Of a DNA stretch of 64,000 bases, positions 12,318 through 51,817 are shown one piece after another. Under the pieces are notes generated by a model. It had not been told where the DNA came from and did no database searches. It saw nothing but the letters and a program-made list of their open reading frames with translations. Source of the DNA: Escherichia phage phi92; the sequence record NC_023693.1, one strand, 5' to 3'. The translations under genes and the position numbers were made by a program. How positions within the stretch are numbered: the first letter of the stretch is position 1; every line of letters starts with the position of its first letter.

Positions 12318-13130
12318 TTATTTAGTCAAATGATCTTCTATCATTTTTATGAAAGCAGGATTGCTAAAAGCATCTGCGGCCTTTTCTCGATAAACAAAGA
12401 CTCCTCTATCTTCGTAAAGAAGAGTTTCTTCGTAATTAATTCCTGGGTTAACAACAATCATTTTTGTACCCATATTAAGTGCAGGGAATAATTCCCAATT
12501 AAAATTGATAACTTGGTTTGAACATCCTACTACAACAACCAAATCTTGCATGGTCAAAGTATCAAACAAGTGAGCCATATCTGCATACAAAGGTGCAGCC
12601 TCACCAAAAAATACAACATTAGGCTTCACCCAGTTGTAATCATCTATGTTTATACTGTTGTAACCAATATCTACCAGTGTTTTGTAATCCCCAGGATGCA
12701 TACGGTAAACTACTTCAGGAAGATATCCGTGCACGTGGATAACAGAATCCCTGTCTACACCTGCTCGCTCTAGTAGATCATCAACGTTTGTTGTCAAGTT
12801 TACTACTTGGTTAGGATATTCCTTAAACCACTTTGCTATTTGAATATGTGCAGCATTAGGTTGTACATCTTTAAGCTCAACACGTCTTTTGTTATAAAAT
12901 TCGTGTGTTTTGGCATACAAATCCATACCGTTTTCATCTACACCACCAACCACTGGAAGATCTGGTGATGTTCTCACACGATAACCTGCTTGGAAAGCTC
13001 CAATATCGCAGATCTCTTCTAAATCCCATTCTTCCCATAGGGCACGACCACTATCTGTGTCTGTTCGGAATGTTCGAATCCCACTATCTGCACTTAAACC
13101 AGCTCCACTAACAAAAATTACTCTTCGCAT
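12318..13130 (-). CDS. Sir2-family (sirtuin-like) NAD-dependent protein
   Basis: GAGLSADSGIRTFR NAD-binding motif, NAAH...TTNVDDL...HVHG catalytic-His block, VVFFGE, VVVGCS, VVNPG; no CxxC zinc ribbon seen; GAGGA SD. Confidence 0.75.
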   Translation of the reverse strand: MRRVIFVSGAGLSADSGIRTFRTDTDSGRALWEEWDLEEICDIGAFQAGYRVRTSPDLPVVGGVDENGMDLYAKTHEFYNKRRVELKDVQPNAAHIQIAKWFKEYPNQVVNLTTNVDDLLERAGVDRDSVIHVHGYLPEVVYRMHPGDYKTLVDIGYNSINIDDYNWVKPNVVFFGEAAPLYADMAHLFDTLTMQDLVVVVGCSNQVINFNWELFPALNMGTKMIVVNPGINYEETLLYEDRGVFVYREKAADAFSNPAFIKMIEDHLTK

Positions 13131-14462: not shown

Positions 14463-15452
14463 TTATTCCCCCATAGATTTAAGAATATGTGCAATGACAG
14501 GTATAGTCCAACCGTTGCCTAACATCTTATATGCTTGTGTGTTACTACTCACTTTAAAGTAATCGTCTGGAACACCTTGTAAGCGGCAACACTCTTTAAC
14601 CGTTAACTTTCTATAATGTACGCCTTCACTCAATTTTTCAAAAGCATCTAGATATCTTCCAGGTGGAATGTAGGCTAATAGTACGTCTTTAGGCACAGTC
14701 GTGAGGCAACGAGTTTTTTCACTGTTCTGAACTTCCAAACAATGTACCAAACGATCAGTTTTAGATGTACTACGTTTGCCATTTTCATTAATTCTACGCC
14801 CATATATTGCTGCTGGATAAAAAACCAGTTGTCTGCGACTCTTTTCAAAATACTGTTCTATATTACCACCTTTGGCATAATTTGCATCTATGCAATAAGC
14901 CTTATCTCTGTCTACAATACTATCATCTTCAATGATATCTTGCAACACTTCATTGGTAATATCCCAGGGTTTTATTTCCCAGTTGCACCAGTATAAACGT
15001 TGTCTATTCTGTGCCGTGAAATCTGCGGAGTTAATGAATACGGGATCAACACCTAAGTAACTTGTGATCACGTTTTCCCACTCCACTTTCATCTTAACGT
15101 TTTCAAGCATGAACTTAACATTAGGGTTAAACTTTTTAATATGTTCAAGAATCTCAACATATTCGAAGAATAGCTTAGATCGCGGATCTTGAAAGTTCAA
15201 ACCTTTACCAGAAGAAGAGAAGCCTTGACACGGACTACCACCTAACAAAAGATCAATTTCTCCCCACGGAATATCCCATTCTCTCCATTTTGTAACATCA
15301 CCTAACTGAATAATATCTGGAAAATTTGCTTGGCTTTCAGCTATGGCGAATTTGTCTAATTCTGAAGCATAATATGTATCTACTTCAATACCTGCACTTT
15401 TTAGCGCAAGCATTCCTCCTGACATACCATCAAAAAGACTTAAAACTTTCAT
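14463..15452 (-). CDS. DNA (cytosine-5)-methyltransferase
   Basis: motif I LSLFDGMSGG, motif IV GSPCQGFS, motif VI ENV, motif VIII QNRQR. Confidence 0.85.
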   Translation of the reverse strand: MKVLSLFDGMSGGMLALKSAGIEVDTYYASELDKFAIAESQANFPDIIQLGDVTKWREWDIPWGEIDLLLGGSPCQGFSSSGKGLNFQDPRSKLFFEYVEILEHIKKFNPNVKFMLENVKMKVEWENVITSYLGVDPVFINSADFTAQNRQRLYWCNWEIKPWDITNEVLQDIIEDDSIVDRDKAYCIDANYAKGGNIEQYFEKSRRQLVFYPAAIYGRRINENGKRSTSKTDRLVHCLEVQNSEKTRCLTTVPKDVLLAYIPPGRYLDAFEKLSEGVHYRKLTVKECCRLQGVPDDYFKVSSNTQAYKMLGNGWTIPVIAHILKSMGE

Positions 15453-21627: not shown

Positions 21628-22281
21628 TTAATTATCAGAGGACACTTTATCAAGTTTTTCAGAGACTGTCAATACTTTTTCTTGTGATTCTTTCATTTCT
21701 GCTAAAATACTTTCAGCTTCATCACTATCAGGATCACCAGTCAACAGCATACTAATTAGTTGCTCCTTGCTGAAGTTCAGAATATCTTCCGCTGTTAACT
21801 CCAGTTGTTCTTCGATCTCTTCGATAAAAGTTTCACCGCCTGAAAAAGCATCTCGCAGTTTTGCAACTTCCATCGCTTCTTCTGGGGTTGCCCCAGCGTC
21901 TAAAGCTGCTAAAGCAAAATCTGCCCCACTACCAACAGCATAATAATCTTCAGTTAAAGGATATGCTCGCGTTGGATTGTTACCCTCGTGCATATAAATT
22001 TTACCATCTGGGTGAACAACTAATGCCACAAACTCTTCATCTTCTTTATCAGGATTTGACTGGATCACCAAACCTGGGATTGTCTCTTGTGCTGCTTGGC
22101 ATTGTAAGTTTTGTTCGAACCAAGAAAAGAAAGTCAGGATAGAAGACAGACGTCCTGCACCACCAACAAGGTAATCCCCAATTTTACGCACTTTCTTGAA
22201 ATTTAAAGTGTCTACTCGATTACCTACTGTTACTTTACCGTCAGACAGAATTTTGTTACGTGTTGCAATAATTGTTGTCAT
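21628..22281 (-). CDS. HslV/proteasome-like Ntn-hydrolase peptidase
   Basis: N-terminal MTTIIATRN (Thr nucleophile after Met), KKVRKIGDYLVGGAG and YAVGSGADFALAA align to HslV blocks. Confidence 0.55.
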   Translation of the reverse strand: MTTIIATRNKILSDGKVTVGNRVDTLNFKKVRKIGDYLVGGAGRLSSILTFFSWFEQNLQCQAAQETIPGLVIQSNPDKEDEEFVALVVHPDGKIYMHEGNNPTRAYPLTEDYYAVGSGADFALAALDAGATPEEAMEVAKLRDAFSGGETFIEEIEEQLELTAEDILNFSKEQLISMLLTGDPDSDEAESILAEMKESQEKVLTVSEKLDKVSSDN

Positions 22282-23569: not shown

Positions 23570-23598
23570 TCCTTATAAAAGGGGCTTTCGCCCCTTTG
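23570..23598 (-). terminator. rho-independent terminator
   Basis: AAAGGGGCGAAAGCCCCTTT hairpin then TTTTATAAGG on minus strand. Confidence 0.5.
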
Positions 23599-23599
23599 T

Positions 23600-24100
23600 T
23601 TAGTTATAAGCGTCTAATGTTCCAGTTTTAAGCACCTGAATTACACGCTCTGCGCGATTAGGCGTTTGGCGATACCATTTACTTTTACGTAAATTTATAG
23701 AGGCTTGAGTATAATATGAATTACTCACTAAAGTCAAGCTATTTTTGAAAGATTCTGCACCTTTCAATCCCATTTGAAATACCATATTAATAATAGCCAT
23801 TTTACGATTAGGACTTACTTTATCGTAAATAGGAGATAATATGGTACTTGAATGGATTTGTTGTATCGCTTTCTTTACGTCACTTTCAAAGATTCTTCTA
23901 GCTTCCGCTTCAGTAATAACTCCATTGGTTTTTCTACCTACTAAGTTATCAAGAATGCGTATAGCTTCTGCTTTATCTTTGAGTTTTGTCAGAAGGTGTC
24001 CAATACCAACTGTCCAATACCCTTCGGTATCAGGATATACAGTTAGCTTTAGTCCTTCATCAAAACGTAACATATCAAACACATCAACTACTTTAGCCAT
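23600..24100 (-). CDS. endolysin, T4-type lysozyme (GH24)
   Basis: FDMLRFDEGLKLTVYPDTEGYWTVGIGHLL matches T4 lysozyme N-terminus including catalytic Glu/Asp/Thr spacing. Confidence 0.85.
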   Translation of the reverse strand: MAKVVDVFDMLRFDEGLKLTVYPDTEGYWTVGIGHLLTKLKDKAEAIRILDNLVGRKTNGVITEAEARRIFESDVKKAIQQIHSSTILSPIYDKVSPNRKMAIINMVFQMGLKGAESFKNSLTLVSNSYYTQASINLRKSKWYRQTPNRAERVIQVLKTGTLDAYN

Positions 24101-24260: not shown

Positions 24261-24527
24261 TTACTCCGCAATCTGAGCCATGAATTCACGTAGTTCAGAA
24301 AAACCTCCTACGTGGGTTAGCTGTTCACCATCTTCCACAAAAATCTGAGGAAATGTGCGTGGTAGAACACCTGTTTTCTCTAAAACCAGATTCTGAATCT
24401 GATCTAAAGAATAGTCTTCATCTAAGGTAAGGTATTTAAAATCCTGTTCACGCTGTTCTAGTAGAATCTTAGCGTTAGTGCAGAAAGGACAATTTGGTTT
24501 ACCGTAGATAATAAAATTCATTTTCAC
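24261..24527 (-). CDS. glutaredoxin (NrdH/Grx-like)
   Basis: CPFC active site near N-terminus, 88 aa. Confidence 0.75.
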   Translation of the reverse strand: MKMNFIIYGKPNCPFCTNAKILLEQREQDFKYLTLDEDYSLDQIQNLVLEKTGVLPRTFPQIFVEDGEQLTHVGGFSELREFMAQIAE

Positions 24528-25354
24528 TCCTTGTTTAAAAGTATAGTTAAAGTTCTTACAATACCGCTATCAACACTTCGCGGATTTAAAGTAGGATCTG
24601 TTTTTAAATAAGATGTTGCTGGTCTGACTGCTTTGGAATTATAGGTTGAAGCAGATACAGGATTAACTGTAACAGACAAATCTATAACAAGAAATATCTT
24701 TCGTGCAAAATCATACCAAGAAATATAATCTGCACCTGCATAGTGTACAATTTTACTATTTACACCATCTTTTACAAGTTTAAAAATTGTTTCTGCAAGA
24801 TCAGGTGCATAAGTAGGACATGATAAATGATCACATACTACATTAAATTCTTTTTGACCACCGTTGTAGCGTTCCAACATAGTTTTCAAAAAGTTATGTC
24901 CAAATTCACTATAAACAGAAGCTGTTCTGATAATAAGTGCTGTAGGACAAACTGCTTGTACTAAAGTTTCACCTAATTGTTTACTGTAACCGTAGGTGTT
25001 CAAGGGGTTTGTTTTACTCTCTTCTGTGCCAGCAACATGTCCATCAAAAACATAGTCTGTTGAAATATGTACAAACTGTATCAGTAAATCATTACATGCT
25101 TTGGCAATGTTTGTTGCACCGTATGCATTAACATTTATACAGGTGTTAACATCTTCTTCAGCTTTATCTACTGCCGTGTAAGCCGCACAATTCACAACAA
25201 CATCAGGCACATGCTGTACAAGACTATTCATAACATCTTTAAAGTTGGTAATGTCTATATCACTTGCTTCAATCAAAACAACATCTTCTGGTGCAACTTT
25301 TGCCAAAGATTGTCCTAATTGACCTTTTGAACCAAAGACTAAAAATTTTGTCAA
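24524..25354 (-). CDS. rmlD: dTDP-4-dehydrorhamnose reductase
   Basis: N-terminal Rossmann FGSKGQLGQ and RmlD-like length; last gene of rml operon order. Confidence 0.75.
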   Translation of the reverse strand: MTKFLVFGSKGQLGQSLAKVAPEDVVLIEASDIDITNFKDVMNSLVQHVPDVVVNCAAYTAVDKAEEDVNTCINVNAYGATNIAKACNDLLIQFVHISTDYVFDGHVAGTEESKTNPLNTYGYSKQLGETLVQAVCPTALIIRTASVYSEFGHNFLKTMLERYNGGQKEFNVVCDHLSCPTYAPDLAETIFKLVKDGVNSKIVHYAGADYISWYDFARKIFLVIDLSVTVNPVSASTYNSKAVRPATSYLKTDPTLNPRSVDSGIVRTLTILLNKE

Positions 25355-25905
25355 AATATGATCTCCTTTAGTGTTTTGGCTTCCTGATCTTTTTGTGACA
25401 AGATAGGTTTAAAATTAATATCATTAAAGATTAAATCAAAACCCCAATCTATATTGATATCTGGATCATTCCACGCAAGACTACACTCTGAAGTCGGATC
25501 GTAATATTCTGTACATTTGTATTCAAAATCAGCAATATCACTAATCACAACAAAGCCATGAGCGAAACCAGGAGGAATCCAAAATTGTGTTTTATTCTTT
25601 TCAGATAAGAGAACACCTACCCATTCTCCAAATGTTGGACTACCAACCCTAATATCTACAGCAACATCATAAACTTCACCACGAACACAGCGTACCAACT
25701 TCCCTTGTGGGTTTTTCTTTTGAAAATGAAGCCCACGTAGAACTCCTCGGATAGAACGTGAATGGTTATCTTGGACAAAGTTTTGTTTACCTATGTATTG
25801 ATCATATAAAGCCTGATTAAAACTTTCTAAGAAAAAGCCACGTTCATCTCCGTAAACGTCAGGTTGAATGATCAACAAATCTTCGATTTTTGTTGCTTGA
25901 ATCAT
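25351..25905 (-). CDS. rmlC: dTDP-4-dehydrorhamnose 3,5-epimerase
   Basis: RGLHFQ cupin signature, 184 aa. Confidence 0.8.
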   Translation of the reverse strand: MIQATKIEDLLIIQPDVYGDERGFFLESFNQALYDQYIGKQNFVQDNHSRSIRGVLRGLHFQKKNPQGKLVRCVRGEVYDVAVDIRVGSPTFGEWVGVLLSEKNKTQFWIPPGFAHGFVVISDIADFEYKCTEYYDPTSECSLAWNDPDINIDWGFDLIFNDINFKPILSQKDQEAKTLKEIIF

Positions 25906-25917
25906 TTAATTCCCCTT

Positions 25918-26787
25918 TTATTTTAATTTAAGTAAATACTTACCGTAGTCTGTTTTACTTAAAACCTCTCCAGAACTTTTTACAGAGTCTAAAGTAATCC
26001 ATTCATTTTTAAAAGCAATCTCTTCCAGGCATGCAACCTTCATACCTTGTTGCTTCTCTATTGCATGAACAAATTGAGATGCTTCCATAAGACTTTCATG
26101 TGTTCCTGTATCCAGCCAAGTGAAACCTCTTCCTAGTTTACAGACACGTAAAGTCTTTTCTTTCCAGTACATCTCATTTATATCCGTAATCTCTAACTCC
26201 CCTCTAGCAGAAGGTTTAACGCTCTTAGCTTTCTGTATAACAGAATTATCGTAAAAGTACAAGCCTGTGATTGCGTAGTTGCTTTTTGGTGTTTTTGGTT
26301 TTTCTTCAATACTCACCACTGTACCTTCAGAATCAAACTCAACAACACCAAATCTTTCAGGATCATTTACGTGATACCCAAAGATATTAGCTCCACCATT
26401 CTTTTCAATATGTTCTTTAGCAGAATCTAAAATGCTACCAAAACTCTGACCAAAGAATAAATTATCACCTAGCACAAGTGCTACAGAATCTTCACCAATA
26501 AAGTTCTCACCAATAATAAACGCTTCTGCTAAACCTTTTGGGCTATCCTGTATTGCATACTGTAGGGAAATACCAAAAGAAGAACCATCACCTAGAAGAT
26601 TTACAAAATTAATTTGATCTTCTGGTGTTGTAATTATTAGTATTTCCCTAATTCCAGAAAGCATTAGGACAGAGAGTGGATAATAAATCATAGGTTTATC
26701 GTAAATTGGTAATAGTTGTTTACTAACCCCTTTAGTAACTGGGTAAAGCCTTGTTCCACTACCACCTGCTAAGATAATACCTTTCAT
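25918..26787 (-). CDS. rmlA: glucose-1-phosphate thymidylyltransferase
   Basis: [18 protein letters not shown] nucleotidyltransferase signature, 289 aa. Confidence 0.85.
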
Positions 26788-26795
26788 ACTCCTCC

Positions 26796-27785
26796 TTAAA
26801 CTTTATTTTCCCACCACTCTTTGTTATCTACATACCAATCAATGGTTGAATAAAGTTTTTCTTCAAATGTGCCTTTAGCTTTCCACCCTAATTCCTTTTC
26901 AATCTTATAAGGATTCACTTCATATCTTAAATCATGCCCAGGCCTATCTGTAACCATCTCAATGAGGCTACAAGCATCTGTTTCAGATGGATATACCGCA
27001 TCCATATAATCACAAATCATATAGATTACATCAATATTAGTTCTAGGGTTTCTGCTCCCAATATTATATGTCTCTCCAGATTTGCCTTTAGTTACTACTA
27101 GGTGTAATGCCTCTGCGTGATCGTCAACGTATAACCAGTCTCTTACTTGAAGACCATTACCATAAACAGGGATTGGTTTATGCATTAAGATATTTGTTAT
27201 CGTTTTAGGTATTAGTTTTTCTGGATGATGATATGCTCCAAAATTATTTGAACAATTTGTTATAACTGTCGGAATACCATAAGTACGATGCCACGCTCTT
27301 ACCAAATGATCGCTTGCAGCTTTAGATGCAGCATATGGACTACTTGGTTTATAAGGATTCTGTTCTGTAAACGGATAATCTCCTTCTTCCAGATCACCAT
27401 ACACTTCATCTGTTGAAATATGATGGAACATTTTAAGATTTGATTTATCTCCCATTAAACGAACAGCTTCTAGAAGATTAAATGTCCCAACAATATTTGA
27501 ATTTATAAAAACACTCGGTGATGCTATTGAATTATCTACGTGACTCTCTGCTGCAAGATGCATTATATAATCTGGATTAACATCTGCCACAATCTTAGCA
27601 GTTAACTGCGCATTTGTCAAGTCAACACGACAAAACTTTACATTAGGTGTTTCTGATAAATTCCTAGGGTCTGAAGCGTAACCCCATTTATCTATAACGT
27701 AAATATCATTCTTAGTATTTTTAGCTAGGAAACGAACTACCGCACTTCCAATAAAGCCTAAACCACCTGTTACTAAGTATTTCAT
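26796..27785 (-). CDS. rmlB: dTDP-glucose 4,6-dehydratase
   Basis: [12 protein letters not shown]-binding motif, SDR-type YxxxK region, 329 aa. Confidence 0.85.
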
Positions 27786-27979
27786 TTAGTCTCCTTCCAA
27801 TTATTCCCTTCAGTAAAAATAATACCTTCATAAAACAACCATCTGGAACCTTTTTCAACAGGAACAGGAAGCTCTTCTTCAGTAAAGTTATAAACCTCTC
27901 TAGCATCTTCTAAAAGTGATGCAAATGTTTTTGGACTTACTGTTACGCGAGGAGCATTGATCAGTTGATCTAGCATCAT
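27782..27979 (-). CDS. hypothetical protein
   Basis: internal ATG 27979 with AAGGAGG SD; avoids overlap with next gene. Confidence 0.4.
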   Translation of the reverse strand: MMLDQLINAPRVTVSPKTFASLLEDAREVYNFTEEELPVPVEKGSRWLFYEGIIFTEGNNWKETK

Positions 27980-27992: not shown

Positions 27993-28319
27993 TTACCAAA
28001 CGTGTTGAGAAATAATAGTTTCCGTTTCAATGTTATATTTTTCAAGAAGTTGTGCATAGGCTTCTTTTGCATTTTTATTTAGTTGCTCAAGATCTACAGC
28101 TACACTTCCTTCGTCACCTTCTAAATAAATGCCATATATGCAATAAGATTCATCAGCGTCATAGAAAGGAGAGATACGACTTAAATCAAGACCTTCTTGT
28201 AAGAACCAGTTAAAGTCTCCATCAAATTCTTCTTCAATTCTAGGATCTTCTCCTACAGCTTCTTCCCATTTATTAAAAGGTGCGCCCTGTAACATACGCC
28301 ATTCAATATTAGTCCCCAT
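27993..28319 (-). CDS. hypothetical protein
   Basis: 108 aa. Confidence 0.5.
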   Translation of the reverse strand: MGTNIEWRMLQGAPFNKWEEAVGEDPRIEEEFDGDFNWFLQEGLDLSRISPFYDADESYCIYGIYLEGDEGSVAVDLEQLNKNAKEAYAQLLEKYNIETETIISQHVW

Positions 28320-28658: not shown

Positions 28659-28845
28659 ACTTGGCTACACCATTAACTATAATGTGACCGCAAGACATAA
28701 CTCCTAGCCAATGATCACCATTCTTTTTTAAACGTTTACCGTAAACATCACAGAAACCATTCTGTAATTCGGAAGCCTCATAAGAGGCTCCCTTTTCGAA
28801 AACGTCTTTGAAGTCAGAAATTAATCCAACACAAAGTAGTTTCAT
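28627..28845 (-). CDS. hypothetical protein
   Basis: 72 aa; start may be internal. Confidence 0.4.
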   Translation of the reverse strand: MKLLCVGLISDFKDVFEKGASYEASELQNGFCDVYGKRLKKNGDHWLGVMSCGHIIVNGVAKFEIIKGEKDD

Positions 28846-29930
28846 TAAAAGTCTAACTCCTCGTCATCACTTACATCTTTATTTGCTGAATTCAGTTTGT
28901 AAGCTGTAATTTGGATCTCCTGTGCTGCTGCTTGAATTTGATCTGGATTTAACCAAACATCCATCCAAGGCAGTGGACTTTTCTTCGGTGCACGGAATTT
29001 GTGTTTCATTTTCAGTCTGCGATAGATAGGCGCAGCATTGAAGTAAACCCAAAGTTTGAACAGCTCTGCGTTACCACCAACAATAATCCTTCCTTCACTA
29101 AACAGATAGTCACACCAATCTTCCTCTTGTCCAACTACCGTGTCAAGAATTTCTGTCAGAACGTCGATATTATCTTCGTATACTTTTCTCCAGACAGGAT
29201 CTTTCAGCAGTGCATCAATAATAGCATAATCCATTTTAACGTGCAATAGTTCATCCAACATAATTTTTTGAATGAGTTTAGCTGCACCTACAAACAGTTG
29301 CTGCTCTGCTAAGGCAAATGTTGCAGCAAAAGATGATATGAATTGAATGCCTTCCAGACCGATAAGTGCAATCATTCCTTTCAGAATCAGTAGACGAAGG
29401 TTATCATCCTTCTCAATCAGACCTAGAGCATATTTATGCCCTGCCTCTGCCAGATCACTCATTATCTCTTCAACTATACCCATCCTCTGGAAGATTCTTT
29501 CGTTCTCCATAATCTGATCGATAACTTCATTTGGATTAGGGATACACTGACGAATAATTTCAGAATATGTCAAAGCGTGTAAAACTTCCATTTCTGATTG
29601 CTTCATCATCATTGCACATGCTTCGTTGTTGCTTAAAAATGGTGCAAACAAAGTGATGATTGATTTAGCAAGTGAATCATTTTCCCATTGGAAAGATAGG
29701 TTTTTGATCATAACATCATAGTTGCTTTTAGAACAAGCTACGAAATCTTTTCGTGTCTGATCTAAGTTTACTTCGTTTTCATCCCAGTCTTGCTGTTTTT
29801 GTAGTTTGTACAGACGATGCATTTCTGGGTATGTTACATTAATAGAATCAAAAATACCTAACTGTTCTCCCAAAAATACAGGGTAGAAACCTTCTTTGTA
29901 AGTGTCGTTGTATAAGTTAATTGCTGCCAT
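28845..29930 (-). CDS. nrdB: ribonucleotide reductase small subunit
   Basis: di-iron/tyrosyl-radical R2 blocks (EACAMMMKQSEMEVLHALTYSE; GLEGIQFISSFAATFA). Confidence 0.85.
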   Translation of the reverse strand: MAAINLYNDTYKEGFYPVFLGEQLGIFDSINVTYPEMHRLYKLQKQQDWDENEVNLDQTRKDFVACSKSNYDVMIKNLSFQWENDSLAKSIITLFAPFLSNNEACAMMMKQSEMEVLHALTYSEIIRQCIPNPNEVIDQIMENERIFQRMGIVEEIMSDLAEAGHKYALGLIEKDDNLRLLILKGMIALIGLEGIQFISSFAATFALAEQQLFVGAAKLIQKIMLDELLHVKMDYAIIDALLKDPVWRKVYEDNIDVLTEILDTVVGQEEDWCDYLFSEGRIIVGGNAELFKLWVYFNAAPIYRRLKMKHKFRAPKKSPLPWMDVWLNPDQIQAAAQEIQITAYKLNSANKDVSDDEELDF

Positions 29931-29974: not shown

Positions 29975-30631
29975 TTAGCCTTGGAACACTGTTTTTGTTT
30001 CTGCCAAGTGATAGTATAAATCTGCCTTGTTTATAAGAGTGTTGTATACCTCTTGACAAAAATGTTCTTCCTCTTTGTAACGATTCGCTGTTTCCCTGAT
30101 CGACTTGGCTTTATCTTTTAACCAAGCGAAGTGTGCCTCTTCCTCTGTAGCGAAATAGCCTAAATGCTTGCTTTTGCTTCCAGAAGTTTTGGCATAAATC
30201 TTGCCATCTTTCCTAATATGCGCTCCGAGTAAGTATTTCCTTTTATGTCTCTTGGCATAACTTAAAAGTGTATTGATATAGGGAGGAACAAACCTACAAT
30301 ATTCAGGACAATAGACAGTATTTCCCTCAAGAACAAGATCTTTGTCTAAAACAAAACCTTCGACATTGTGTTCTTGATACCAATTATCAAAATTTGAAAA
30401 AGTAAACCAAGCATCACAGACGGTAACATCTTTATACCCTGGTCTAATATCTTCCATCTTATATGCACGATGAAACATGCCTTTCCAAGCTGCATAGGAA
30501 GGGTCTATGAATGTGTTAACCCTTTTCCCGTTGACAACGCCACCTTCCCACAATCTACGTTCAACATCCACAATCAAGGGGATTTCTCCCCTCTCTGTGA
30601 GAACAGTAACTTTACGTTTACCCTTCTTCAC
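29975..30631 (-). CDS. putative homing endonuclease with AP2-type DNA-binding domain
   Basis: HLGYFATEEEAHFAW AP2-like block; free-standing ORF between nrdA and nrdB. Confidence 0.5.
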   Translation of the reverse strand: MKKGKRKVTVLTERGEIPLIVDVERRLWEGGVVNGKRVNTFIDPSYAAWKGMFHRAYKMEDIRPGYKDVTVCDAWFTFSNFDNWYQEHNVEGFVLDKDLVLEGNTVYCPEYCRFVPPYINTLLSYAKRHKRKYLLGAHIRKDGKIYAKTSGSKSKHLGYFATEEEAHFAWLKDKAKSIRETANRYKEEEHFCQEVYNTLINKADLYYHLAETKTVFQG

Positions 30632-30639: not shown

Positions 30640-32904
30640 CTACATTTTACAGGCGCTACACCCCTCGTCTTCAGAATCTTCTTGAGCGAGTGAGGATGCC
30701 GATTTTGTTCTGCTATTTAGATAGTACAAAGATTTACCACCAAGTTTTGCAAACTGAAGAATATATTGCATTTCTGATTTAATGGATAAACGACCACCTT
30801 CCATCTTAGAATAGTCAATCCACTTATCACATGATGCACCTTGATCTAAGAATTTAGTCAACAGTCCATATGCTTCAGCCATATCTTTATCTGGTGTATC
30901 CCAAGCCGATTGGTAAATATCTTTTAGTTTATCGTAGTCTGGCACAATAAACAGAACATTACCCTTTTGGCTTTGTTTATAAACTATAGTATCACGTACA
31001 GGATACACAGAGTTAGTCGTATTACTTACAAGACTACTGGACTCATTTGGAGCAATAGCTGCTAATACGCTATTTCGGATACCACCTTGTGCAATGATAT
31101 CTTGTCGTAAACCTTCCCAATCCATTTTAAGTTTAAAATTGCCAATATCGTCTACAGCTTTAGCGTAGGTATCAATAGGCAACCATCCTTCAGGCCATTT
31201 GGTTTTATGCATCCATTCTGCATTACCTTTCTCTTTTGCCAAACGAAGAGAAGCTCTTGCTAACCAGTAATAATGCCTTTCTGCTAATTCGTGAATTAGT
31301 TTTTTGCCGTAAGGATCTGAATAAGTAACAAAATTACTTGCCAGATAATGTGCAAGGTTTGTAATACCTACACCGATAGACCTACGTGCTTTAGCAGTGA
31401 TTTCGTTATGTTTAAACGGATACTGCATTGTTTCAATAACATTATCAATAGTTAGAACGGTATAGTATGCAACATCTTCATATTCTTCTGGTGTAACACG
31501 ACCAGCTACAATAGAAGACAGGAAGCATAATGCCAATTCTTGATCTTCTGTATTCTCACCTGTGAAAAGATCAGTCATATTGTGAAATGCTTTCGTAGGT
31601 AAGAAAATTTCTTGGCACAAGTTTGACTGATAAATAACATCCTTAAACGGGGTATGTTTATTAGCATTATCCGCAAAGAACATATAAATACGTCCTGTCT
31701 CTGCTCTTTGTGTAATAATTTCTGCCAGAAGATCTCGTGCTTTTACAAACTTTTTCTTAATTCGTTTGCGACTAACTTTTTCATATACTTCTTCAAACTC
31801 TTCCTCGCTTTTATAAAGCGCATCATAGAGTTCTGGTGCTTCGTCATAACTAACTAGCATCCAATCTTTACCTTTTGCTGCACGGCGCAGGAAAGCATTG
31901 TTTACTACGATAGAGTAATCAAGTTTATCTACTCGTTTTTCACTAACAGTAGTTGGGTTTTTCAAACGTACCAGATCTTCAAAATCAGGTTCTAGTATTG
32001 TAAACGTTACTGTTGCACTTCCACCACGACTTGCTTGTTTTGATGCTCCAACACTTGTCTCCATCCATTTCAGATATGGTAAAAGACCACCGTGAACGAT
32101 ACGGTTGTTCTTAACACCTTGTCCTGTGGCACGGGTTTGAAGGTTAACACCAATACCTGCATTATTCAATGTATATTCATGCGCAAGATAGTTAGCAATT
32201 GCTAAAGATTCTGCTGTATCGTCTGCTCTAAACAGACAACAAGAAGCACTACCTTTAATCTTAGTACGCAAAGTTGTTAAATAAGGCGATGGTAAATTAA
32301 TCTTAAGATCACTTACGTAGGTATATAGACGTTTAATGTCTTCTACTCTGCGATCTTTTGGTTGGATTTCCATTACCTTCATTGCTACACCAATGAATAA
32401 AAACTGTGGTGATTCAAAAACAACATCATTGATCGCATCTTTCACAAGATACTTATCAACCATCTGGCGCAGTACGGAATAACCATAAGTTAGGTTTTTA
32501 TCGTGATTGACAATTTTACCAATCTCAATAATTTCTTCTTCTGTATAATCCATTTTTCCCCAATAGCCTTTACTTACAGACATATTGTAGAAATCCAGGA
32601 GGGAGGGGATATTGTGATATCCCCCATGAGCCTGTTTATAAATCATACCAAGAAGTAACCGACCTGCCATATCACTATATGCCTGATCTTTCTTATCAAT
32701 ACATGCTGCTATCATAGCTTTATGTAAATCACGAGTAGGCACACCGTCGTAACAACGTTTAACAGCTTCGAGTTCAATTTCAGACCAATTTAATTTACCA
32801 GCAGCAAACTCTGACCATTTACGAAGTTTTTCTGGATTAAATTCTTCTTTCTTGCCGTTTGTTTTTGTTACATAACGGATAGATTTGCTTAGATACTGAG
32901 TCAC
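30640..32904 (-). CDS. nrdA: ribonucleotide reductase large subunit (class Ia)
   Basis: 754 aa; SNLCQEIFLP active-site Cys block, N-terminal ATP-cone-like region. Confidence 0.9.
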   Translation of the reverse strand: MTQYLSKSIRYVTKTNGKKEEFNPEKLRKWSEFAAGKLNWSEIELEAVKRCYDGVPTRDLHKAMIAACIDKKDQAYSDMAGRLLLGMIYKQAHGGYHNIPSLLDFYNMSVSKGYWGKMDYTEEEIIEIGKIVNHDKNLTYGYSVLRQMVDKYLVKDAINDVVFESPQFLFIGVAMKVMEIQPKDRRVEDIKRLYTYVSDLKINLPSPYLTTLRTKIKGSASCCLFRADDTAESLAIANYLAHEYTLNNAGIGVNLQTRATGQGVKNNRIVHGGLLPYLKWMETSVGASKQASRGGSATVTFTILEPDFEDLVRLKNPTTVSEKRVDKLDYSIVVNNAFLRRAAKGKDWMLVSYDEAPELYDALYKSEEEFEEVYEKVSRKRIKKKFVKARDLLAEIITQRAETGRIYMFFADNANKHTPFKDVIYQSNLCQEIFLPTKAFHNMTDLFTGENTEDQELALCFLSSIVAGRVTPEEYEDVAYYTVLTIDNVIETMQYPFKHNEITAKARRSIGVGITNLAHYLASNFVTYSDPYGKKLIHELAERHYYWLARASLRLAKEKGNAEWMHKTKWPEGWLPIDTYAKAVDDIGNFKLKMDWEGLRQDIIAQGGIRNSVLAAIAPNESSSLVSNTTNSVYPVRDTIVYKQSQKGNVLFIVPDYDKLKDIYQSAWDTPDKDMAEAYGLLTKFLDQGASCDKWIDYSKMEGGRLSIKSEMQYILQFAKLGGKSLYYLNSRTKSASSLAQEDSEDEGCSACKM

Positions 32905-33685: not shown

Positions 33686-34657
33686 TCACCATTTTGTATG
33701 GTTAGTCAAAAGTTGACGATGTTGAATCCAACCACAGAAGTTTCCACTCCACAAACGATGTTTACGATCCATATGTGTAATACCTTCTTCCCAAGAGGTA
33801 GGGAACGGAGGAATATTAATACCACCTTTCTGTTGTTTTAATCCTGACAAATCCATTTCTTTCATTGGCGTTGCCTGGTGTTCAAACGGAGATGCATGTA
33901 CCTTTTGTCCAGACAGCAAACGAGAATAGATATCCAATGCTTTATCTTTGGTATCATTCAATTTACGATAACTTACCTGAGCGCAACAAGAAGCTGAAAT
34001 AGCTTTTGCTTCATCTTCTGTCAACATTTTCTCGTTGGAGAAGGTTTCACCCAAGAAATAACGGATCATACCAGTTTCTGGATCTCGATCACGATTAACG
34101 TAAGGTGTATGCCATTCCCCTGGGAAAAGAAGATATGGTTCAGAAGATTCATACAGTTTTTTAATTTCTTTAGCAAGAGCCTCAATAGTAGGATCTGCAT
34201 CAGCATCTACGCGCAACCACAAGAAGTTTTCTAGCTCTGTAGTGGTTACTACAGTCTTCATACGCTGGAATGGTTCTAGTAGGCGGTTTGCAACCTGTTT
34301 ATGATAACCAGCAAGGGCAAACTCTTCTGCAAAACGTGCAGCACTTAGCGCAGCCAAGTCCCACCATTCTTTTGCAGTGTAACCTGCATCAATCAGGGCA
34401 TCGTGATCTGTGCCTTTATCTTGCATACCTGGTTGGTTAGCACCAAAACGATAAGGACGTGCTGGAGATTGCCGTACCATTTCAATTAGAGTTTTAACAG
34501 GGATAGCTCGACTTGATGCGGCATTACGAGAAAACAAACGATGCGTCATCAATTCAGAGTGAATGATTCGAGGATATTCAAGTTCAAAGGTAACAATATC
34601 CTTACCTTCAGATGTTTGAGAGTGTGCAATAATTTTTGCTGAAATAGAGTTTGTCAT
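33686..34657 (-). CDS. ThyX-like flavin-dependent thymidylate synthase (tentative)
   Basis: HRLFSRNAASSR resembles ThyX RHRx7S signature; no ThyA PCH motif; longer than typical ThyX. Confidence 0.4.
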   Translation of the reverse strand: MTNSISAKIIAHSQTSEGKDIVTFELEYPRIIHSELMTHRLFSRNAASSRAIPVKTLIEMVRQSPARPYRFGANQPGMQDKGTDHDALIDAGYTAKEWWDLAALSAARFAEEFALAGYHKQVANRLLEPFQRMKTVVTTTELENFLWLRVDADADPTIEALAKEIKKLYESSEPYLLFPGEWHTPYVNRDRDPETGMIRYFLGETFSNEKMLTEDEAKAISASCCAQVSYRKLNDTKDKALDIYSRLLSGQKVHASPFEHQATPMKEMDLSGLKQQKGGINIPPFPTSWEEGITHMDRKHRLWSGNFCGWIQHRQLLTNHTKW

Positions 34658-34666: not shown

Positions 34667-35257
34667 TTAAGGTAGTAAAATACTTTCAATTTCTTCCCAC
34701 TGATTATCTAAACCAGTGATAATTACATTAGGAAGTTTCTTTAACTCTTCCAAGTATGGATCTTCGTAAATAGTGTTGAAATATATTTTCAACGTTTCAT
34801 CTGGAAATAGGACAAGATTTTCAGCCCTATCGTCAATAGTTACGTCGCAAGGTAATAAGTATTTTTCTTTTGTTGCGAAAAAGCCATTACCAGATGTTCT
34901 ACTAAAGTCCACTTTATCTAAAGATCGTGTTACGTGTCTATATTTAGAACTAAGGTGTCCACCCTTAGTGTGGCTTGCTATAGATATATTAGCGCCATTT
35001 GCAATTATACGATGAACAACATCTGTACTATTAGGTACTACTCCCATAGTATCATATAGATGTTGGTTATCCCAAAAAGAGTAAGGATCTACACCAAATT
35101 GCTTTTTAAAATCAGGAAAATATTTCGTAATATCATAATGCACAGTCTTTTGTGTCTTATCAAACTTGATATTAGATCTACTTACCGCATTTAACCAACT
35201 CAACCATTCTATATCGGCAGGAGCTATTACTAAATCCCAATCACATACTAGACGCAT
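34667..35257 (-). CDS. HAD-family 5'(3')-deoxyribonucleotidase-like protein (tentative)
   Basis: start at internal ATG 35257 (AGGAGA SD); CDWDLVIA (DxD-like) and VTIDDRAENL blocks. Confidence 0.4.
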   Translation of the reverse strand: MRLVCDWDLVIAPADIEWLSWLNAVSRSNIKFDKTQKTVHYDITKYFPDFKKQFGVDPYSFWDNQHLYDTMGVVPNSTDVVHRIIANGANISIASHTKGGHLSSKYRHVTRSLDKVDFSRTSGNGFFATKEKYLLPCDVTIDDRAENLVLFPDETLKIYFNTIYEDPYLEELKKLPNVIITGLDNQWEEIESILLP

Positions 35258-35804
35258 TATTTCTCCTGTTATAACATTTTCTACACATTGTTTCGTAAAT
35301 GTCTTCTCCTCCAATAACAATCTGTTCTTTAGAGTCGATAAGTCTAGCATTGAAAATAGCTTTTCTTCCACATTTACAAATGCTTTTCAATTCTGTAATT
35401 GAATCTGCTATGGCTAATAACCGTTCAGAACCTTCAAACAATTCTGTAGCAAAATCTGTTTTAAGCCCATAACAGAATACAGGAATATCGTAATTATCTA
35501 CCACATCTCCAAGAATGTCAACCATATCTTTAGTTAGGAATTGTGATTCGTCAACAAATACTGCATCTACTGGATTTTCTTTAAGCTGTGTATAAATTTC
35601 CAGCATATCTTCTTTTGTTTTAACTGGTTTTGCTTCCTCTTTAATACCTATCCTAGAAGCAATAGCACAACCAGATCTGGTATCTAAAGCTGAAGTTAAA
35701 AGAAGAACTTTCATATTTCTTTCTTTATAGTTCCAAGCTGTTTGTAGCAGGTGTGTGCTTTTACCACTGTTCATCGGACTGTATCGGAAATAAAGTTTAG
35801 CCAT
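35241..35804 (-). CDS. tdk: thymidine kinase
   Basis: P-loop MNSGKST and C-terminal zinc ribbon CxxC...CxxC typical of Tdk. Confidence 0.85.
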   Translation of the reverse strand: MAKLYFRYSPMNSGKSTHLLQTAWNYKERNMKVLLLTSALDTRSGCAIASRIGIKEEAKPVKTKEDMLEIYTQLKENPVDAVFVDESQFLTKDMVDILGDVVDNYDIPVFCYGLKTDFATELFEGSERLLAIADSITELKSICKCGRKAIFNARLIDSKEQIVIGGEDIYETMCRKCYNRRNNASSM

Positions 35805-48178: not shown

Positions 48179-49072
48179 ATGAAAGTTAGTATTCTACATG
48201 GTGTTGGCTGTTATGTTACTGATGTAGACGTTAAAGTCTTTACATTCTCTGGTGGAGAACAACATGTTCAACTAGACACGAATCTATCAGGTTTCAATCA
48301 TGCTACAGACAGAATCTTACTCTCTTTAGAAGTAAGATCTGCTAAAGACTTGATGACTTTGGTTATGACTAAGAATGCATTGGACAATATGCTATATCAT
48401 AAACCATATTGTGTTGATTTGCTCATGTTGTATGTGCCATATGCACGACAAGACAGAGTGTGTGAACCTGGGGAAGCATTCGGAGTTAAAGCATTTGCTT
48501 CTATAATTAATTCATTAAATTTCTCACGTGTTATCGTTGCTGATCCACATAGTGATGTTACTCCAGCGGTGTTTGACAGACTCTGTGTAATACCTCAAGA
48601 AGAAATTGCTTACGAAACTTTAAAGTGGAAGTTACGTATGGAGAATTTTGCTCTTGTTAGTCCTGATGGTGGTGCTCTTAAGAAAATATTTAAATTATCT
48701 AAGAAAATGTCTTTAGATGTGTTCTGTGCAGAGAAGGTTAGAGATACTGCAACAGGTGCTATTGTTCGTACAGACATTTCTGTACAGGATTTCAATAAGC
48801 GTAACCTGATGATCGTAGATGATATCTGTGACGGCGGTAGAACTTTTATTGAATTGGCTAAAGTGCTACGTGCTCGTAACGCAGGTAAGATTGAGTTATA
48901 TGTTACACACGGTATCTTTTCTAAAGGTCTTAAAGAGTTAAGTGAGCACTTTGACTGCATTCATTCTCTTAATGTGTGGGAAGATAACATCCAAGAAGAT
49001 TCCGGTGTTCTTGTTAAGAATCAGTCAGATTTGCAACAACAAATTGTATCTCCATACGTGTGGAATTTTTAA
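48179..49072 (+). CDS. ribose-phosphate pyrophosphokinase (PRPP synthetase) family protein; candidate ADP-ribose pyrophosphate synthetase (Adps-like)
   Basis: VSPDGGALKK and PRPP-binding-type IVDDICDGGRT motifs; AAGGAG SD. Confidence 0.8.
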   Translation: MKVSILHGVGCYVTDVDVKVFTFSGGEQHVQLDTNLSGFNHATDRILLSLEVRSAKDLMTLVMTKNALDNMLYHKPYCVDLLMLYVPYARQDRVCEPGEAFGVKAFASIINSLNFSRVIVADPHSDVTPAVFDRLCVIPQEEIAYETLKWKLRMENFALVSPDGGALKKIFKLSKKMSLDVFCAEKVRDTATGAIVRTDISVQDFNKRNLMIVDDICDGGRTFIELAKVLRARNAGKIELYVTHGIFSKGLKELSEHFDCIHSLNVWEDNIQEDSGVLVKNQSDLQQQIVSPYVWNF

Positions 49073-49081
49073 ATAATAAGT

Positions 49082-49110
49082 GTTGACAATAGGGAGTATG
49101 CTTAGTAAGA
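49082..49110 (+). promoter_or_regulatory. sigma70-like promoter (TTGACA-N17-TAAGAT)
   Basis: between the PRPP-synthetase-like and NAMPT-like genes. Confidence 0.45.
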
Positions 49111-49143
49111 TACTCCCACACTAACAAACAAGGAGACATAACT

Positions 49144-51624: not shown

Positions 51625-51700
51625 GGTTCCATAGCTCACTGACGAGAGCGCACACCTCATAAGTGTCGAGGGCAGGGATTGTAACCCTGGGGAACCACCA
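51625..51700 (+). tRNA. tRNA-Met/Ile2-like (anticodon CAT), non-canonical T-loop
   Basis: manual fold: acceptor GGTTCC/GGAACC, D-stem GCTC/GAGC, anticodon loop CTCATAA, T-stem CAGGG/CCCTG with loop ATTGTAA, CCA encoded. Confidence 0.5.
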
Positions 51701-51731
51701 TTTAAAAGGAGGTGCTATGCATCTCCTATAT

Positions 51732-51817
51732 GCAAGTGTGGTGGAATTGGTGATACACATTGTGCTTAAAACGCAACGCTTAAATGCTTGAGGGTTCGAA
51801 TCCCTCCACTTGCACCA
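51732..51817 (+). tRNA. tRNA-Leu (anticodon TAA)
   Basis: manual fold: acceptor GCAAGTG/CACTTGC, anticodon stem TTGTG/CGCAA, loop CTTAAAA, long variable arm, T-arm GAGGG-TTCGAAT-CCCTC, CCA. Confidence 0.7.

Follow-up and report, generated by a model that had tools for sequence, protein, structure and literature searches.

A conserved dTDP-L-rhamnose-type operon in a phi92-like phage and the glycosyltransferase cassette that it may supply

The minus strand of the phage DNA studied here, a stretch of 64,000 nucleotides (the 64-kb window) from a Justusliebigvirus (phi92-like) that is 99% identical to phage Nernie, carries at 24261-27785 five co-directional open reading frames in the transcription order rmlB, rmlA, rmlC, rmlD, grx. 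This locus raises the question whether a lytic phage makes its own activated deoxysugar and, if so, to what acceptor the sugar is transferred. For the identification of the Rml enzymes a score above the curated NCBIfam equivalog cut-off was required together with the catalytic or cofactor motifs. The scores were 442.5 bits for RmlB against TIGR01181 (cut-off 365.1), 472.9 bits for RmlA against TIGR01207 (cut-off 360.65), 259.8 bits for RmlC against TIGR01221 (cut-off 155.75) and 254.2 bits for RmlD against TIGR01214 (cut-off 224.05). Pfam agreed, RmlB matching GDP_Man_Dehyd as well as Epimerase and RmlA matching NTP_transferase, and the four consecutive genes are thus those named in an initial annotation of the window. 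The signature motifs cited there for RmlB, RmlA and RmlC were also present in the translations: RmlB contains both TGGLGFIGS (the SDR Rossmann GxxGxxG) and YAASK (Tyr-xxx-Lys), RmlA the nucleotide-binding loop G-G-x-G-T-R-L, and RmlC the catalytic signatures RGLHFQ (His), GKLVRC (Lys) and, at the C-terminus, SQKD. RmlD contains GxxGxxG (as GSKGQLG), STDYVF and YGYSK. Alignment of RmlC to the S. enterica RmlC structure 1dzr (E 6e-64) placed the catalytic His and Lys as conserved, and alignment of RmlD to the RmlD structure 1vl0 (E 4e-44) did so for STDYVF and YxxxK. With four intact equivalogs the product is very probably dTDP-L-rhamnose, as had been proposed and as the gene identities support, or a close 6-deoxy-L-hexose, since sequence does not separate an RmlD-type reductase from a 6-deoxy-L-talose-forming homologue, nor accordingly the two stereochemistries of the product (rhamnose or 6-deoxy-talose).

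The start codon of rmlD is a TTG which overlaps the stop codon of rmlC, and the ATG of rmlB overlaps the stop codon of the preceding 65-aa ORF, which appears from this ATGA arrangement to be translationally coupled to rmlB (Table 1). The glutaredoxin that had been recognised after rmlD is indeed encoded there; its gene probably starts at ATG 24521, preceded by the ribosome-binding site AAGGAG, and not at GTG 24527. The protein scored below the NCBIfam equivalog cut-offs, matched phrog_22 'thioredoxin domain' and weakly matched Grx-NrdB fusion models. Most likely it is the reductant of the phage NrdAB and not a part of sugar synthesis. The neighbouring nrdA, nrdB and tdk genes, which had been pointed out as well, were located in the window, with nrdB lying upstream of the rml genes in the same direction of transcription. 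The sole local peculiarity of the window in comparison to its relatives is that nrdA and nrdB have an HNH endonuclease gene between them. A scan gave no promoter signal above chance inside the rml operon and recovered the palindrome of the terminator-like hairpin (23574..23597) that is read on the minus strand downstream of the lysozyme gene. It is proposed that the rml operon is co-transcribed with the phage nrd genes.

Table 1. Positions of the features of the window that are referred to in the text
Feature	Position	Strand	Assignment and remarks
Dcm-like C5-cytosine DNA methyltransferase	14463..15452	(-)	Pfam DNA_methylase, 152 bits
Intrinsic-terminator-like hairpin	23574..23597	(-)	AAAGGGGC-GAAA-GCCCCTTTT; ends the nrd...rml...lysozyme unit
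Lysozyme/endolysin	23600..24100	(-)	Last gene of the co-directional block; endolysin in EmilieFrey
Glutaredoxin (grx)	24261..24521	(-)	CPFC active site; Pfam PF00462, 45 bits
rmlD	24524..25354	(-)	dTDP-4-dehydrorhamnose reductase, 276 aa; TIGR01214 equivalog
rmlC	25351..25905	(-)	dTDP-4-dehydrorhamnose 3,5-epimerase, 184 aa; TIGR01221 equivalog
rmlA	25918..26787	(-)	Glucose-1-phosphate thymidylyltransferase, 289 aa; TIGR01207 equivalog
rmlB	26796..27785	(-)	dTDP-glucose 4,6-dehydratase, 329 aa; TIGR01181 equivalog
65-aa ORF	27782..27979	(-)	phrog_27883; coupled to rmlB (ATGA); CDS in EmilieFrey
108-aa ORF between nrdB and rmlB	27993..28319	(-)	phrog_15453; annotated in relatives
nrdB	28845..29930	(-)	Class I ribonucleotide reductase beta; so annotated in EmilieFrey and Nernie
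nrdA	30640..32904	(-)	Class I ribonucleotide reductase alpha; so annotated in relatives
Divergent ThyX-family thymidylate synthase	33686..34657	(-)	Pfam Thy1, 37 bits
tdk	35241-35804		Neighbour gene

More than 100 phage records in GenBank have the rml operon annotated, and it is 95-99% identical in 54 records. The syntenic ThyX...nrd...rmlBACD-grx block is shared by every Stephanstirmvirinae-like lineage, with amino-acid identities falling to 44-68%, and grx follows rmlD in all lineages compared. The GC content of the operon is 35% and that of the phage 37%; relative to the E. coli rfb genes the nucleotide identity is 65% over 52% of the length, and the gene order is different. Judged by these comparisons, the operon has long been part of this phage clade and is conserved in it. 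Natural variants were found in which the pathway has been shortened: L039 has no rmlB, and KP2025 has neither rmlA nor rmlB and keeps rmlC and rmlD, two genes that were never lost in any related lineage examined. Enterobacterales make dTDP-4-keto-6-deoxyglucose via RffH/RffG. Because these two variants dropped entry steps and rmlC and rmlD were never lost, the gene contents indicate that selection acts on the end product of the pathway.

A likely recipient for such an end product was found elsewhere in the genome. That no glycosyltransferase (GT) is obvious near the operon holds within the 64-kb window, but not genome-wide: a search of the rest of the genome, which had been suggested as a check, was positive, the 99%-identical Nernie having four consecutive GT genes at 126,964-130,140. 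They belong to a conserved cassette, GT1-GT2-GT3-GT4-hyp89, which is located about 70 kb from the operon and thus outside the window, adjoins primase and DNA polymerase genes and always ends with hyp89, a conserved acidic protein of 89 aa. Among Escherichia phage records RmlC was detected in 104, GT1 in 104, GT2 in 105 and GT4 in 105, whereas a homologous tail sheath is present in 218; the Vequintavirinae are therefore without both gene sets. All large IMG/VR contigs with a Stephanstirmvirinae-type cassette carry RmlC (the divergent siphovirus contig L031 was left out of this comparison), and KP2025 has trimmed both sets in parallel, being without rmlA, rmlB and GT4 and retaining GT1, GT2 and GT3. 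Because of this co-distribution and parallel gene loss, it is likely that the dTDP-sugar feeds the GT cassette. The predicted model of GT4 (pLDDT 95) has a GT4-type GT-B fold, with PglA, PglH, PimA, WbnH, WaaB and WaaG, i.e. enzymes of lipid-linked glycans and LPS, as its best structural matches. GT3 is basic (pI 8.9), GT1 is a putative glycosyltransferase, and transmembrane segments were predicted in none of the GTs.

In the proposed mechanism the operon would convert glucose-1-phosphate and dTTP to dTDP-L-rhamnose, which would serve as donor for the GT1-GT2-GT3-GT4-hyp89 cassette, and the four soluble cytoplasmic GTs would assemble a short rhamnose-containing glycan. The likeliest acceptor would be a virion protein of the phage itself, or several of them, by analogy to mycobacteriophages with their glycosylated capsids and tail tubes. 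Our best guess, albeit a tentative one, is that virion proteins carry a rhamnose-containing glycan, and among the options of the initial annotation virion glycosylation best fits the new comparative evidence. If true, a phage of very broad host range would, with a pathway of its own, not rely on rhamnose synthesis by the host serotype that it happens to infect. Counting against this reading, Freeman et al. 2023 reportedly found virion glycosylation to be little evidenced outside actinobacteriophages.

Virion proteins are preferred as acceptor because of the gene contexts of distant homologues only. The unrelated siphovirus contig L031 (56% GC) carries an orthologous GT1-GT2-GT3 block of 39-45% identity between the genes for its major capsid protein and its head-tail connector. 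The junctions of this cassette (25 and 12 nt) hold ribosome-binding sites only, and 24 relatives of L031 have a gap of 387-727 bp at the same place and no GTs. Since L031 itself resembles temperate lambda-like prophages, its insertion could also serve lysogenic conversion by way of the host surface. In the Cellulophaga phage phi18:2 a homologue of GT1 is located between portal/minor capsid genes and protease/MCP genes, and in the Streptomyces phage KimJongPhill a homologue of GT4, immediately upstream of the terminase and portal genes, adjoins a methyltransferase gene and one for an NDP-sugar dehydratase/epimerase. The nearest outside relative of GT2 is gp102 of mycobacteriophage Boomer (99.3% probability, E 4e-20, for the GT2 family profile), which belongs to a virion-glycosylation locus and is two genes away from gp105; the latter is 82% identical to Che8 gp110, a GT essential for capsid glycosylation (PMC12363180; PMC11256854). 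GT2 had no match to the validated Che8 GTs gp108, gp109 and gp110 (probability <1%), and therefore the link to mycobacteriophages is one of locus association only. In the Stephanstirmvirinae the cassette is located by replication genes and the operon by nucleotide-metabolism genes, neither of them by structural genes, which counts against virion proteins as acceptor. The Ser/Asn-rich C-terminal tail of the sheath, when compared across phages, does not track with the pathway.

These positions of operon and cassette would also suit a hypermodification of DNA, in which rhamnose or a rhamnose-containing glycan is placed on a modified base of the phage genome. This idea is already found in Olsen et al. 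2020, where the operon was noted as 'peculiar' and rhamnosylated DNA was proposed, and it would be in line with weak matches of GT2 to Pfam TAGT (E 2e-4) and to a PHROG of beta-glucosyl-HMC alpha-glucosyltransferases (E 5e-5), with T4 alpha-GT and beta-GT as structural neighbours of the GT4 model and with the C5-cytosine methyltransferase encoded by the phage. We nevertheless regard it as improbable. The TAGT match of GT2 (21.8 bits) is below the gathering score of 27.5 and spans only 60 residues, and a TAGT-domain protein came merely 48th among the viral structural matches of GT2. Maffei et al. 2021 found phi92-like phages 'exceptionally susceptible' when challenged with six restriction-modification (RM) systems, in assays that left the glycosyl-hmC T-even phages essentially unaffected. 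A motif-limited modification, e.g. at Dcm-like-methylated sites as in TET/5hmC-glycosyl systems, could be present and need not confer resistance to those six RM systems. However, the only thymidylate-synthase-like gene belongs to the ThyX family (35.8 bits against TIGR02170, below the cut-off of 87.9) and not to the ThyA/dCMP-hydroxymethylase fold, and no TET/JBP, 2OG-oxygenase or other base-modifying enzyme was found by Pfam among the 64 un-named proteins, a search that a very divergent enzyme could escape. A route from 5mC via 5hmC to a glycosylated base starting with the Dcm-like enzyme was considered, but the hypothetical proteins flanking the methyltransferase had no Pfam match and no oxygenase partner was found. 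Moreover, KP2025 keeps rmlC, rmlD and GTs with no detected homologue of the Dcm-like enzyme, and in L031 the same cassette is located inside a capsid-tail operon. To our knowledge, no DNA glycosyltransferase characterised so far uses a donor other than a UDP-sugar. Neither a hydroxymethyl-making enzyme nor a member of a DNA-GT family was found, and with this susceptibility to restriction, the lack of a hydroxymethylase or TET-type oxygenase and the sub-threshold TAGT match, the DNA or nucleotide-pool role favoured in the initial annotation is poorly supported. With respect to the nucleotide pool, RmlA consumes dTTP and the operon has nrdAB, ThyX, Tdk and glutaredoxin genes around it, so that RmlA could be imagined as a dTTP/dTDP sink or buffer with the sugar being incidental. 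This is highly improbable: in conflict with it, the variants lost rmlB (L039) or rmlA and rmlB (KP2025), i.e. the dTTP-consuming entry steps, and never rmlC or rmlD, which therefore argues against a dTTP sink. Furthermore, purifying selection acts on each of the four enzymes across lineages, the glutaredoxin is accounted for by the ribonucleotide reductase module, and a phage with 63% A+T in its DNA gains nothing by draining dTTP.

Acceptors in the host have to be weighed against virion proteins as well. The GTs may put rhamnose on a cytoplasmic lipid-linked intermediate of the host envelope (Und-PP-GlcNAc, LPS core or an ECA/NGR precursor), and the changed surface glycans could mask receptors, leading to superinfection exclusion and to fewer progeny being lost on debris; alternatively, Und-P could be sequestered. 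The predicted similarity of GT4 to enzymes of lipid-linked glycans and LPS points in this direction, as do the basic character of GT3, shared with many peripheral membrane GTs, the surface glycans (NGR glycan) and LPS core that these phages use as receptors, and the lambda-like nature of L031, given that cassettes inserted in such prophages often serve lysogenic conversion. Such a use is nonetheless rather unlikely, since genes for a flippase, a polymerase, a ligase and a membrane-anchored GT are missing from the phage, whose GTs are free of transmembrane segments, and the strictly lytic cycle leaves little time to export a new glycan. Moreover, the cassette is common to phages of E. coli, Klebsiella and other hosts, which differ in their surface glycans, and in L031 it is inside the late structural operon with no room for an own promoter or terminator. 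An acceptor of another kind, such as a non-structural protein of host or phage, a small molecule or a nucleotide-derived signal, is unlikely. It could serve host takeover or counter-defence, and the acidic hyp89 could itself be the acceptor: the cassette always closes with this protein, Ter-type and NAD/ADP-ribose-related genes typical of host-takeover regions are nearby, and GT folds do not reveal the acceptor. On the other hand, no particular acceptor of this kind has positive support, three to four GTs suggest the assembly of an oligosaccharide and not a single regulatory modification, and the contexts in L031, Cellulophaga and Streptomyces phages are all structural. A glycan on virion proteins is hence retained as the preferred interpretation.

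The operon is not new, as it has already been annotated and discussed in the literature, where it was called 'putative dTDP glycosylation machinery' (Maffei et al. 2021). The same operon is present in the Stephanstirmvirinae (phi92, phAPEC8, ECGD1, EmilieFrey/Bas61 and others), and the window is a member of this group. With bacterial RmlABCD (RfbABCD) the phage enzymes share the equivalogs and catalytic motifs, and the same chemistry and product would be expected. In contrast to the bacterial genes, the operon is carried by a virulent myovirus in the order B-A-C-D (rfbB-D-A-C in E. coli) and is part of an nrd/glutaredoxin/lysozyme unit, not of a cluster for O-antigen or capsule; unlike in the bacterial pathway, some phage lineages carry the last two steps only. 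Mimivirus synthesises UDP-L-rhamnose and PBCV-1 bears capsid glycans, but these eukaryotic viruses use the UDP-rhamnose route (UGD/UGER), and beyond the shared fold their machineries have no sequence relationship to the bacterial dTDP route of the phage. Phage DNA glycosylation systems (glucosylation and arabinosylation of hmC in T-even phages; methyltransferase plus TET/5mYOX plus GT, TAGT) likewise have GTs among replication and nucleotide genes, and the C5-cytosine methyltransferase and the weak TAGT and beta-alpha-GT similarity add to this likeness; here, however, the donor would be a dTDP- and not a UDP-sugar, and methyltransferase and GTs are not clustered. The virion glycosylation of mycobacteriophages (Che8, Corndog and Myrna; Freeman et al. 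2023) likewise relies on phage-encoded soluble GTs. In comparison to these phages, the E. coli phage cassette, with its proposed role in virion glycosylation, is not beside structural genes, the host is Gram-negative and the sugar-nucleotide pathway, too, is encoded by the phage.

The dTDP-L-rhamnose operon of Escherichia phage phi92 is in itself ordinary and already catalogued. The operon region shares 99.0% identity with that of Escherichia phage Nernie and 95-99% with 54 phage records, all from the Stephanstirmvirinae genus Justusliebigvirus (phi92-like) and including the BASEL phages EmilieFrey and PaulScherrer; most of these records already carry the rml annotation. Rhamnosylated DNA was proposed by Olsen et al. 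(2020), and Maffei et al. (2021; PMC8594841) described the phages as 'exceptionally susceptible' to RM systems 'despite... a putative dTDP glycosylation machinery', so that both the operon and the DNA role favoured in the initial annotation are already in print. The question of what use a strictly lytic phage makes of its own rhamnose supply has stood since at least 2020, and neither an experimental resolution of the operon's role nor a report of rhamnosylated phage DNA, or of glycosylated virions in these phages, was found in the literature. What is added here is a testable link from the operon to a mobile glycosyltransferase (GT) cassette, together with comparative evidence by which the virion replaces DNA as the favoured target. 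Four 'Campylobacter phage' records, A150, A145, C3 and A110a (MG065639, MG065645, MG065656 and MG065689; host C. jejuni), have an operon 98.5% identical to that of the window as well as the GT cassette, and their host assignment looks doubtful.

A dTDP-rhamnose operon inside the phage was confirmed. Its five tightly packed ORFs follow the order rmlB, rmlA, rmlC, rmlD and a CPFC glutaredoxin, and all four Rml proteins surpass the NCBIfam equivalog cut-offs with concordant Pfam results, which supports dTDP-rhamnose as the product; in alignments the catalytic motifs of RmlC and RmlD match those of solved structures. The rmlD gene starts with TTG and overlaps the rmlC stop codon, and for the glutaredoxin ATG 24521 is the most likely start. 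As rmlB begins with an ATG that overlaps the stop of the 65-aa ORF before it, a sigma-70 scan of the rml block gave promoter sites at chance level (20 versus 20.4 expected) and a good terminator hairpin lies past the lysozyme gene, the rml genes are predicted to be part of a long nrdA-(HNH)-nrdB-...-rmlBACD-grx-lysozyme unit. The glutaredoxin is similar to Grx-NrdB fusion proteins and thioredoxin-domain PHROGs and is best read as the reductant of ribonucleotide reductase rather than as a component of sugar synthesis. In EmilieFrey and Nernie the place of the HNH homing endonuclease gene is taken by a 111-aa ORF, which indicates a variable mobile insertion in the ribonucleotide reductase operon. 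The early/middle region also contains a gene for an HslV/proteasome-beta-like peptidase, labelled 'putative proteasome component' in EmilieFrey.

Features of the phi92 window and of related genomes (positions without a genome name refer to the window; L004 is the stretch of Nernie used for coordinates outside it)
Feature	Position	Strand	Description
Whole operon	24261-27785	minus	five ORFs
rmlB	27785-26796	minus	TIGR01181, 442.5 bits (cut-off 365)
rmlA	26787-25918	minus	TIGR01207, 472.9 bits (cut-off 361)
rmlC	25905-25351	minus	TIGR01221, 259.8 bits (cut-off 156)
rmlD	25354-24524	minus	TIGR01214, 254.2 bits (cut-off 224)
Terminator hairpin	23597-23574		
HslV-like peptidase	21628-22281	minus	
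HNH homing endonuclease	29975-30631	minus	218 aa, between nrdA and nrdB; phrog_953, E 3e-58
'Thymidylate synthase'	33686-34657	minus	323 aa; Pfam Thy1 37 bits; TIGR02170 35.8 bits (cut-off 87.9)
PRPP synthetase, NAMPT, Sir2-family protein	48179-50877; 12318-13130	plus; minus	
tRNA gene cluster	51625-54544	plus	15 genes
Abnormal tRNA	52508-52583		two-base anticodon (ARAGORN)
Prohead serine protease	60180-60671	plus	between portal and scaffold; XkdF-type (PF14550, 44 bits)
Ter-type cluster	Nernie 118,389-124,958 (L004:18389-24958)		TerC membrane protein, TelA-like, vWA-TerF-like, TerD
GT cassette	Nernie 126,964-130,140		four consecutive genes
GT1			187 aa; invariant CLRDxDTMFL (DxD-like) motif; faint GT2-family similarity
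GT3, GT4			337 and 314 aa; paralogues, 42% identical
89-aa protein	Nernie 130,140-130,409 (L004:30140-30409)		pI 4.1; phrog_4240, function unassigned
Relocated GT2	KP2025 94,204-94,836		divergent copy, 35% identity
Three-gene GT cassette	L031:9474-11558		GT1, GT2, GT3

Recent capture from E. coli was ruled out, the operon reaching only ~65% nucleotide identity to rfb genes at best, across 52% of its length, among 5,426 E. coli genomes; its GC content of 35% is close to the 37% of the phage, and its order rmlBACD differs from rfbB-D-A-C in E. coli. Every Stephanstirmvirinae-like lineage recovered from GenBank and IMG/VR has a syntenic ThyX...nrd...rmlBACD-grx block, with amino-acid identities as low as 44-68%. 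One such lineage (L039) retains rmlA-rmlC-rmlD-grx intact and is missing rmlB, while Klebsiella phage KP2025 has rmlC-rmlD-grx only, RmlA and RmlB being absent from a whole-genome tblastn search; loss of RmlC or RmlD was seen in none of the recovered lineages. In Enterobacterales, dTDP-4-keto-6-deoxyglucose for ECA is made via RffH/RffG, so that RmlC and RmlD would be the minimal addition securing dTDP-L-rhamnose in any host. Since rmlB or both rmlA and rmlB are lost but RmlC and RmlD never are, the selected trait appears to be the end product. The same pattern makes a dTTP-sink role for the operon unlikely, as a sink would need RmlA. A different, widespread partial 6-deoxyhexose module of uncultivated phages is represented by more than 60 mostly short IMG/VR viral contigs (L048-L113), in which an RmlB-like dehydratase adjoins RmlC (~50-55% identity) without RmlA or RmlD; the same pairing occurs in Synechococcus phages in GenBank.

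The initial statement that no glycosyltransferase is obvious nearby holds inside the window but not genome-wide: a search of the remaining genome was positive in Nernie, of which the window corresponds to ~18.9-82.9 kb, and yielded four consecutive genes annotated as glycosyltransferases, followed directly by a conserved 89-aa ORF, a primase/helicase gene and a DNA polymerase gene. The structure model of GT4 (pLDDT 95) predicts a GT4-type GT-B enzyme, and no membrane segments were found in the cassette GTs. GT1 was rejected as a recognisable GT-A enzyme, because its hhalign comparison with the GT2 family was not significant and a PDB profile search was empty; its faint Pfam matches are to the GT2 family only. 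In all Stephanstirmvirinae-type lineages the 3' end of the cassette has the very acidic 89-aa protein, with identities as low as 33%. Counts over the Escherichia phage records were 104 for RmlC, 104 for GT1, 105 for GT2 and 105 for GT4, compared with 218 for the homologous tail sheath, the difference reflecting the sister Vequintavirinae, which have neither the rml nor the GT set. All large IMG/VR contigs with a Stephanstirmvirinae-type cassette have RmlC, the divergent siphovirus-type contig L031 being outside this count, and in KP2025 the two sets are trimmed in parallel, with rmlA, rmlB and GT4 gone and GT1, a relocated GT2 and GT3 kept. On this comparative evidence the conserved, mobile GT cassette elsewhere in the genome is very likely to be what uses the sugar. 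A Ter-type cluster lies immediately upstream of the cassette and is also kept in KP2025.

The DNA or nucleotide-pool role preferred in the initial annotation was left unsupported by RM sensitivity, by the lack of any detected hydroxymethylase or oxygenase and by the loss of rmlB, or of both rmlA and rmlB, in relatives. In the assays of Maffei et al. (2021; PMC8594841) phi92-like phages were RM-hypersensitive, whereas glycosyl-hmC T-evens were insensitive. The gene annotated as 'thymidylate synthase' encodes a divergent member of the ThyX family and not a ThyA-type hydroxymethylase; the protein is unusually long and its chemistry is putative. No oxygenase signature was found in the proteins flanking the Dcm-like C5-methyltransferase, and a Pfam scan of the 64 un-named proteins with a length of 100 aa or more gave no family of base-modifying enzymes, TET/JBP and 2OG-oxygenase included. 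The match of GT2 to the DNA-GT-type family TAGT is below threshold and spans 60 residues; in the ranking of viral structural matches to GT2, generic GT2-like proteins come ahead of a TAGT-domain protein in 48th place, and among the structural matches of GT4 the T4 alpha-GT ranks 15th and the beta-GT 30th. Moreover, KP2025 keeps the pathway with no detectable homologue of the Dcm-like enzyme. DNA glycosylation by this system is thus unlikely, and a motif-restricted hypermodification through an oxygenase diverged past detection is quite improbable.

Because fold alone is undecisive, the acceptor was judged from the contexts of distant GT homologues. The strongest clue is the context in L031 (IMGVR_UViG_3300046474_000595), a lambda-like siphovirus-type genome of 56% GC with the gene order terminase, portal, Mu-F, major capsid protein (MCP), GT1 (44% identity), GT2 (39%), GT3 (45%), head-tail connector, tail tube and tape measure. 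The junctions of the cassette measure 25 and 12 nt and contain ribosome-binding sites only, its GC content equals that of the flanks, and the 89-aa protein is absent; in L031 the cassette would so be expressed with the head and tail genes. As 24 relatives sharing the capsid (≤90% identity) and connector genes have a 387-727 bp gap without GTs at this place, the exact MCP/connector insertion implies transfer of the cassette, as one unit, between phages of unrelated type. The GT2 family profile matched the GT-A domain of Mycobacterium phage Boomer gp102 (99.3% probability, E 4e-20, 188 columns), and tblastn gave 335 Mycobacterium-phage genes of this type, all of those among the matches listed being located at the genome end. 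Two genes from gp102, Boomer gp105 is 82% identical to Che8 gp110, a GT reported to be essential for capsid glycosylation (PMC12363180; also PMC11256854). Direct homology of GT2 to the validated Che8 GTs gp108-110 gave no match, only the Boomer gp102 type matching, so the mycobacteriophage link is one of locus and not of orthology. The only other relatives of GT1 are the C-terminal half of Cellulophaga phage phi18:2 gp39, which sits between portal/minor-capsid and protease/MCP genes, and the GT4 homologue of Streptomyces phage KimJongPhill adjoins NDP-sugar dehydratase/epimerase and methyltransferase genes directly upstream of terminase and portal.

Taken together, the L031, Boomer, phi18:2 and KimJongPhill contexts tentatively favour virion proteins as the acceptor; confidence stays limited because a glycan on the virions is putative, the cassette of the E. 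coli phages adjoins replication genes and the L031 insert may be a conversion module. A remodelling of glycans on the host envelope agrees with the similarity of GT4 to Und-PP-glycan and LPS enzymes and with the reliance of these phages on surface glycans, but export machinery is lacking and the cassette is conserved in phages whose hosts differ in their surfaces, both of which fit it poorly and make it rather unlikely. Less likely still is another protein or small-molecule acceptor, the conserved acidic 89-aa protein included. With virion proteins as acceptor, the dTDP-L-rhamnose pathway and the mobile GT1-GT2-GT3(-GT4) cassette would place a rhamnose-containing glycan on the virion, and it is possible, if slightly more speculative than the choice of acceptor, that Stephanstirmvirinae (phi92- and phAPEC8-like) virions carry such a glycan made from wholly phage-encoded parts.

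Two candidate components were ruled out. The C-terminal tail of the sheath protein, rich in Ser and Asn, does not track the rml/GT genes as a glycosylation site, since it occurs in Justusliebigvirus only, is absent in the pathway-bearing Phapecoctavirus and has comparable counterparts in GT-less Vequintavirinae. The gene between portal and scaffold is no sugar methyltransferase like the Cellulophaga and Streptomyces neighbours, its prohead serine protease product having no similarity to the methyltransferases of these phages; the label 'DNA methyltransferase' of its Nernie orthologue is a mis-annotation in the public record.

Elsewhere in the window, the PRPP synthetase, NAMPT and Sir2-family genes, together with genes for NADAR, Macro, ComF-like PRTase and DUF4326 proteins located outside it in Nernie, suggest that the phage salvages NAD+ or handles ADP-ribose, perhaps to counter defences that deplete NAD. 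The tRNA with the abnormal anticodon corresponds to 'tRNA-OTHER' in Nernie.

The question is thereby narrowed to a sugar that probably feeds a mobile GT cassette, with DNA glycosylation and a dTTP sink unlikely and virion glycosylation as the leading hypothesis. This phage group is widely used in therapy and biocontrol, and the phi92-like phages, which are therapy candidates, lead the BASEL collection in breadth of host range. If true, the proposed glycan would be the first virion glycosylation in phages of Gram-negative bacteria, extending the phenomenon beyond actinobacteriophages, and such a coat could affect particle stability and mucus binding and, as in mycobacteriophages, alter antibody recognition.
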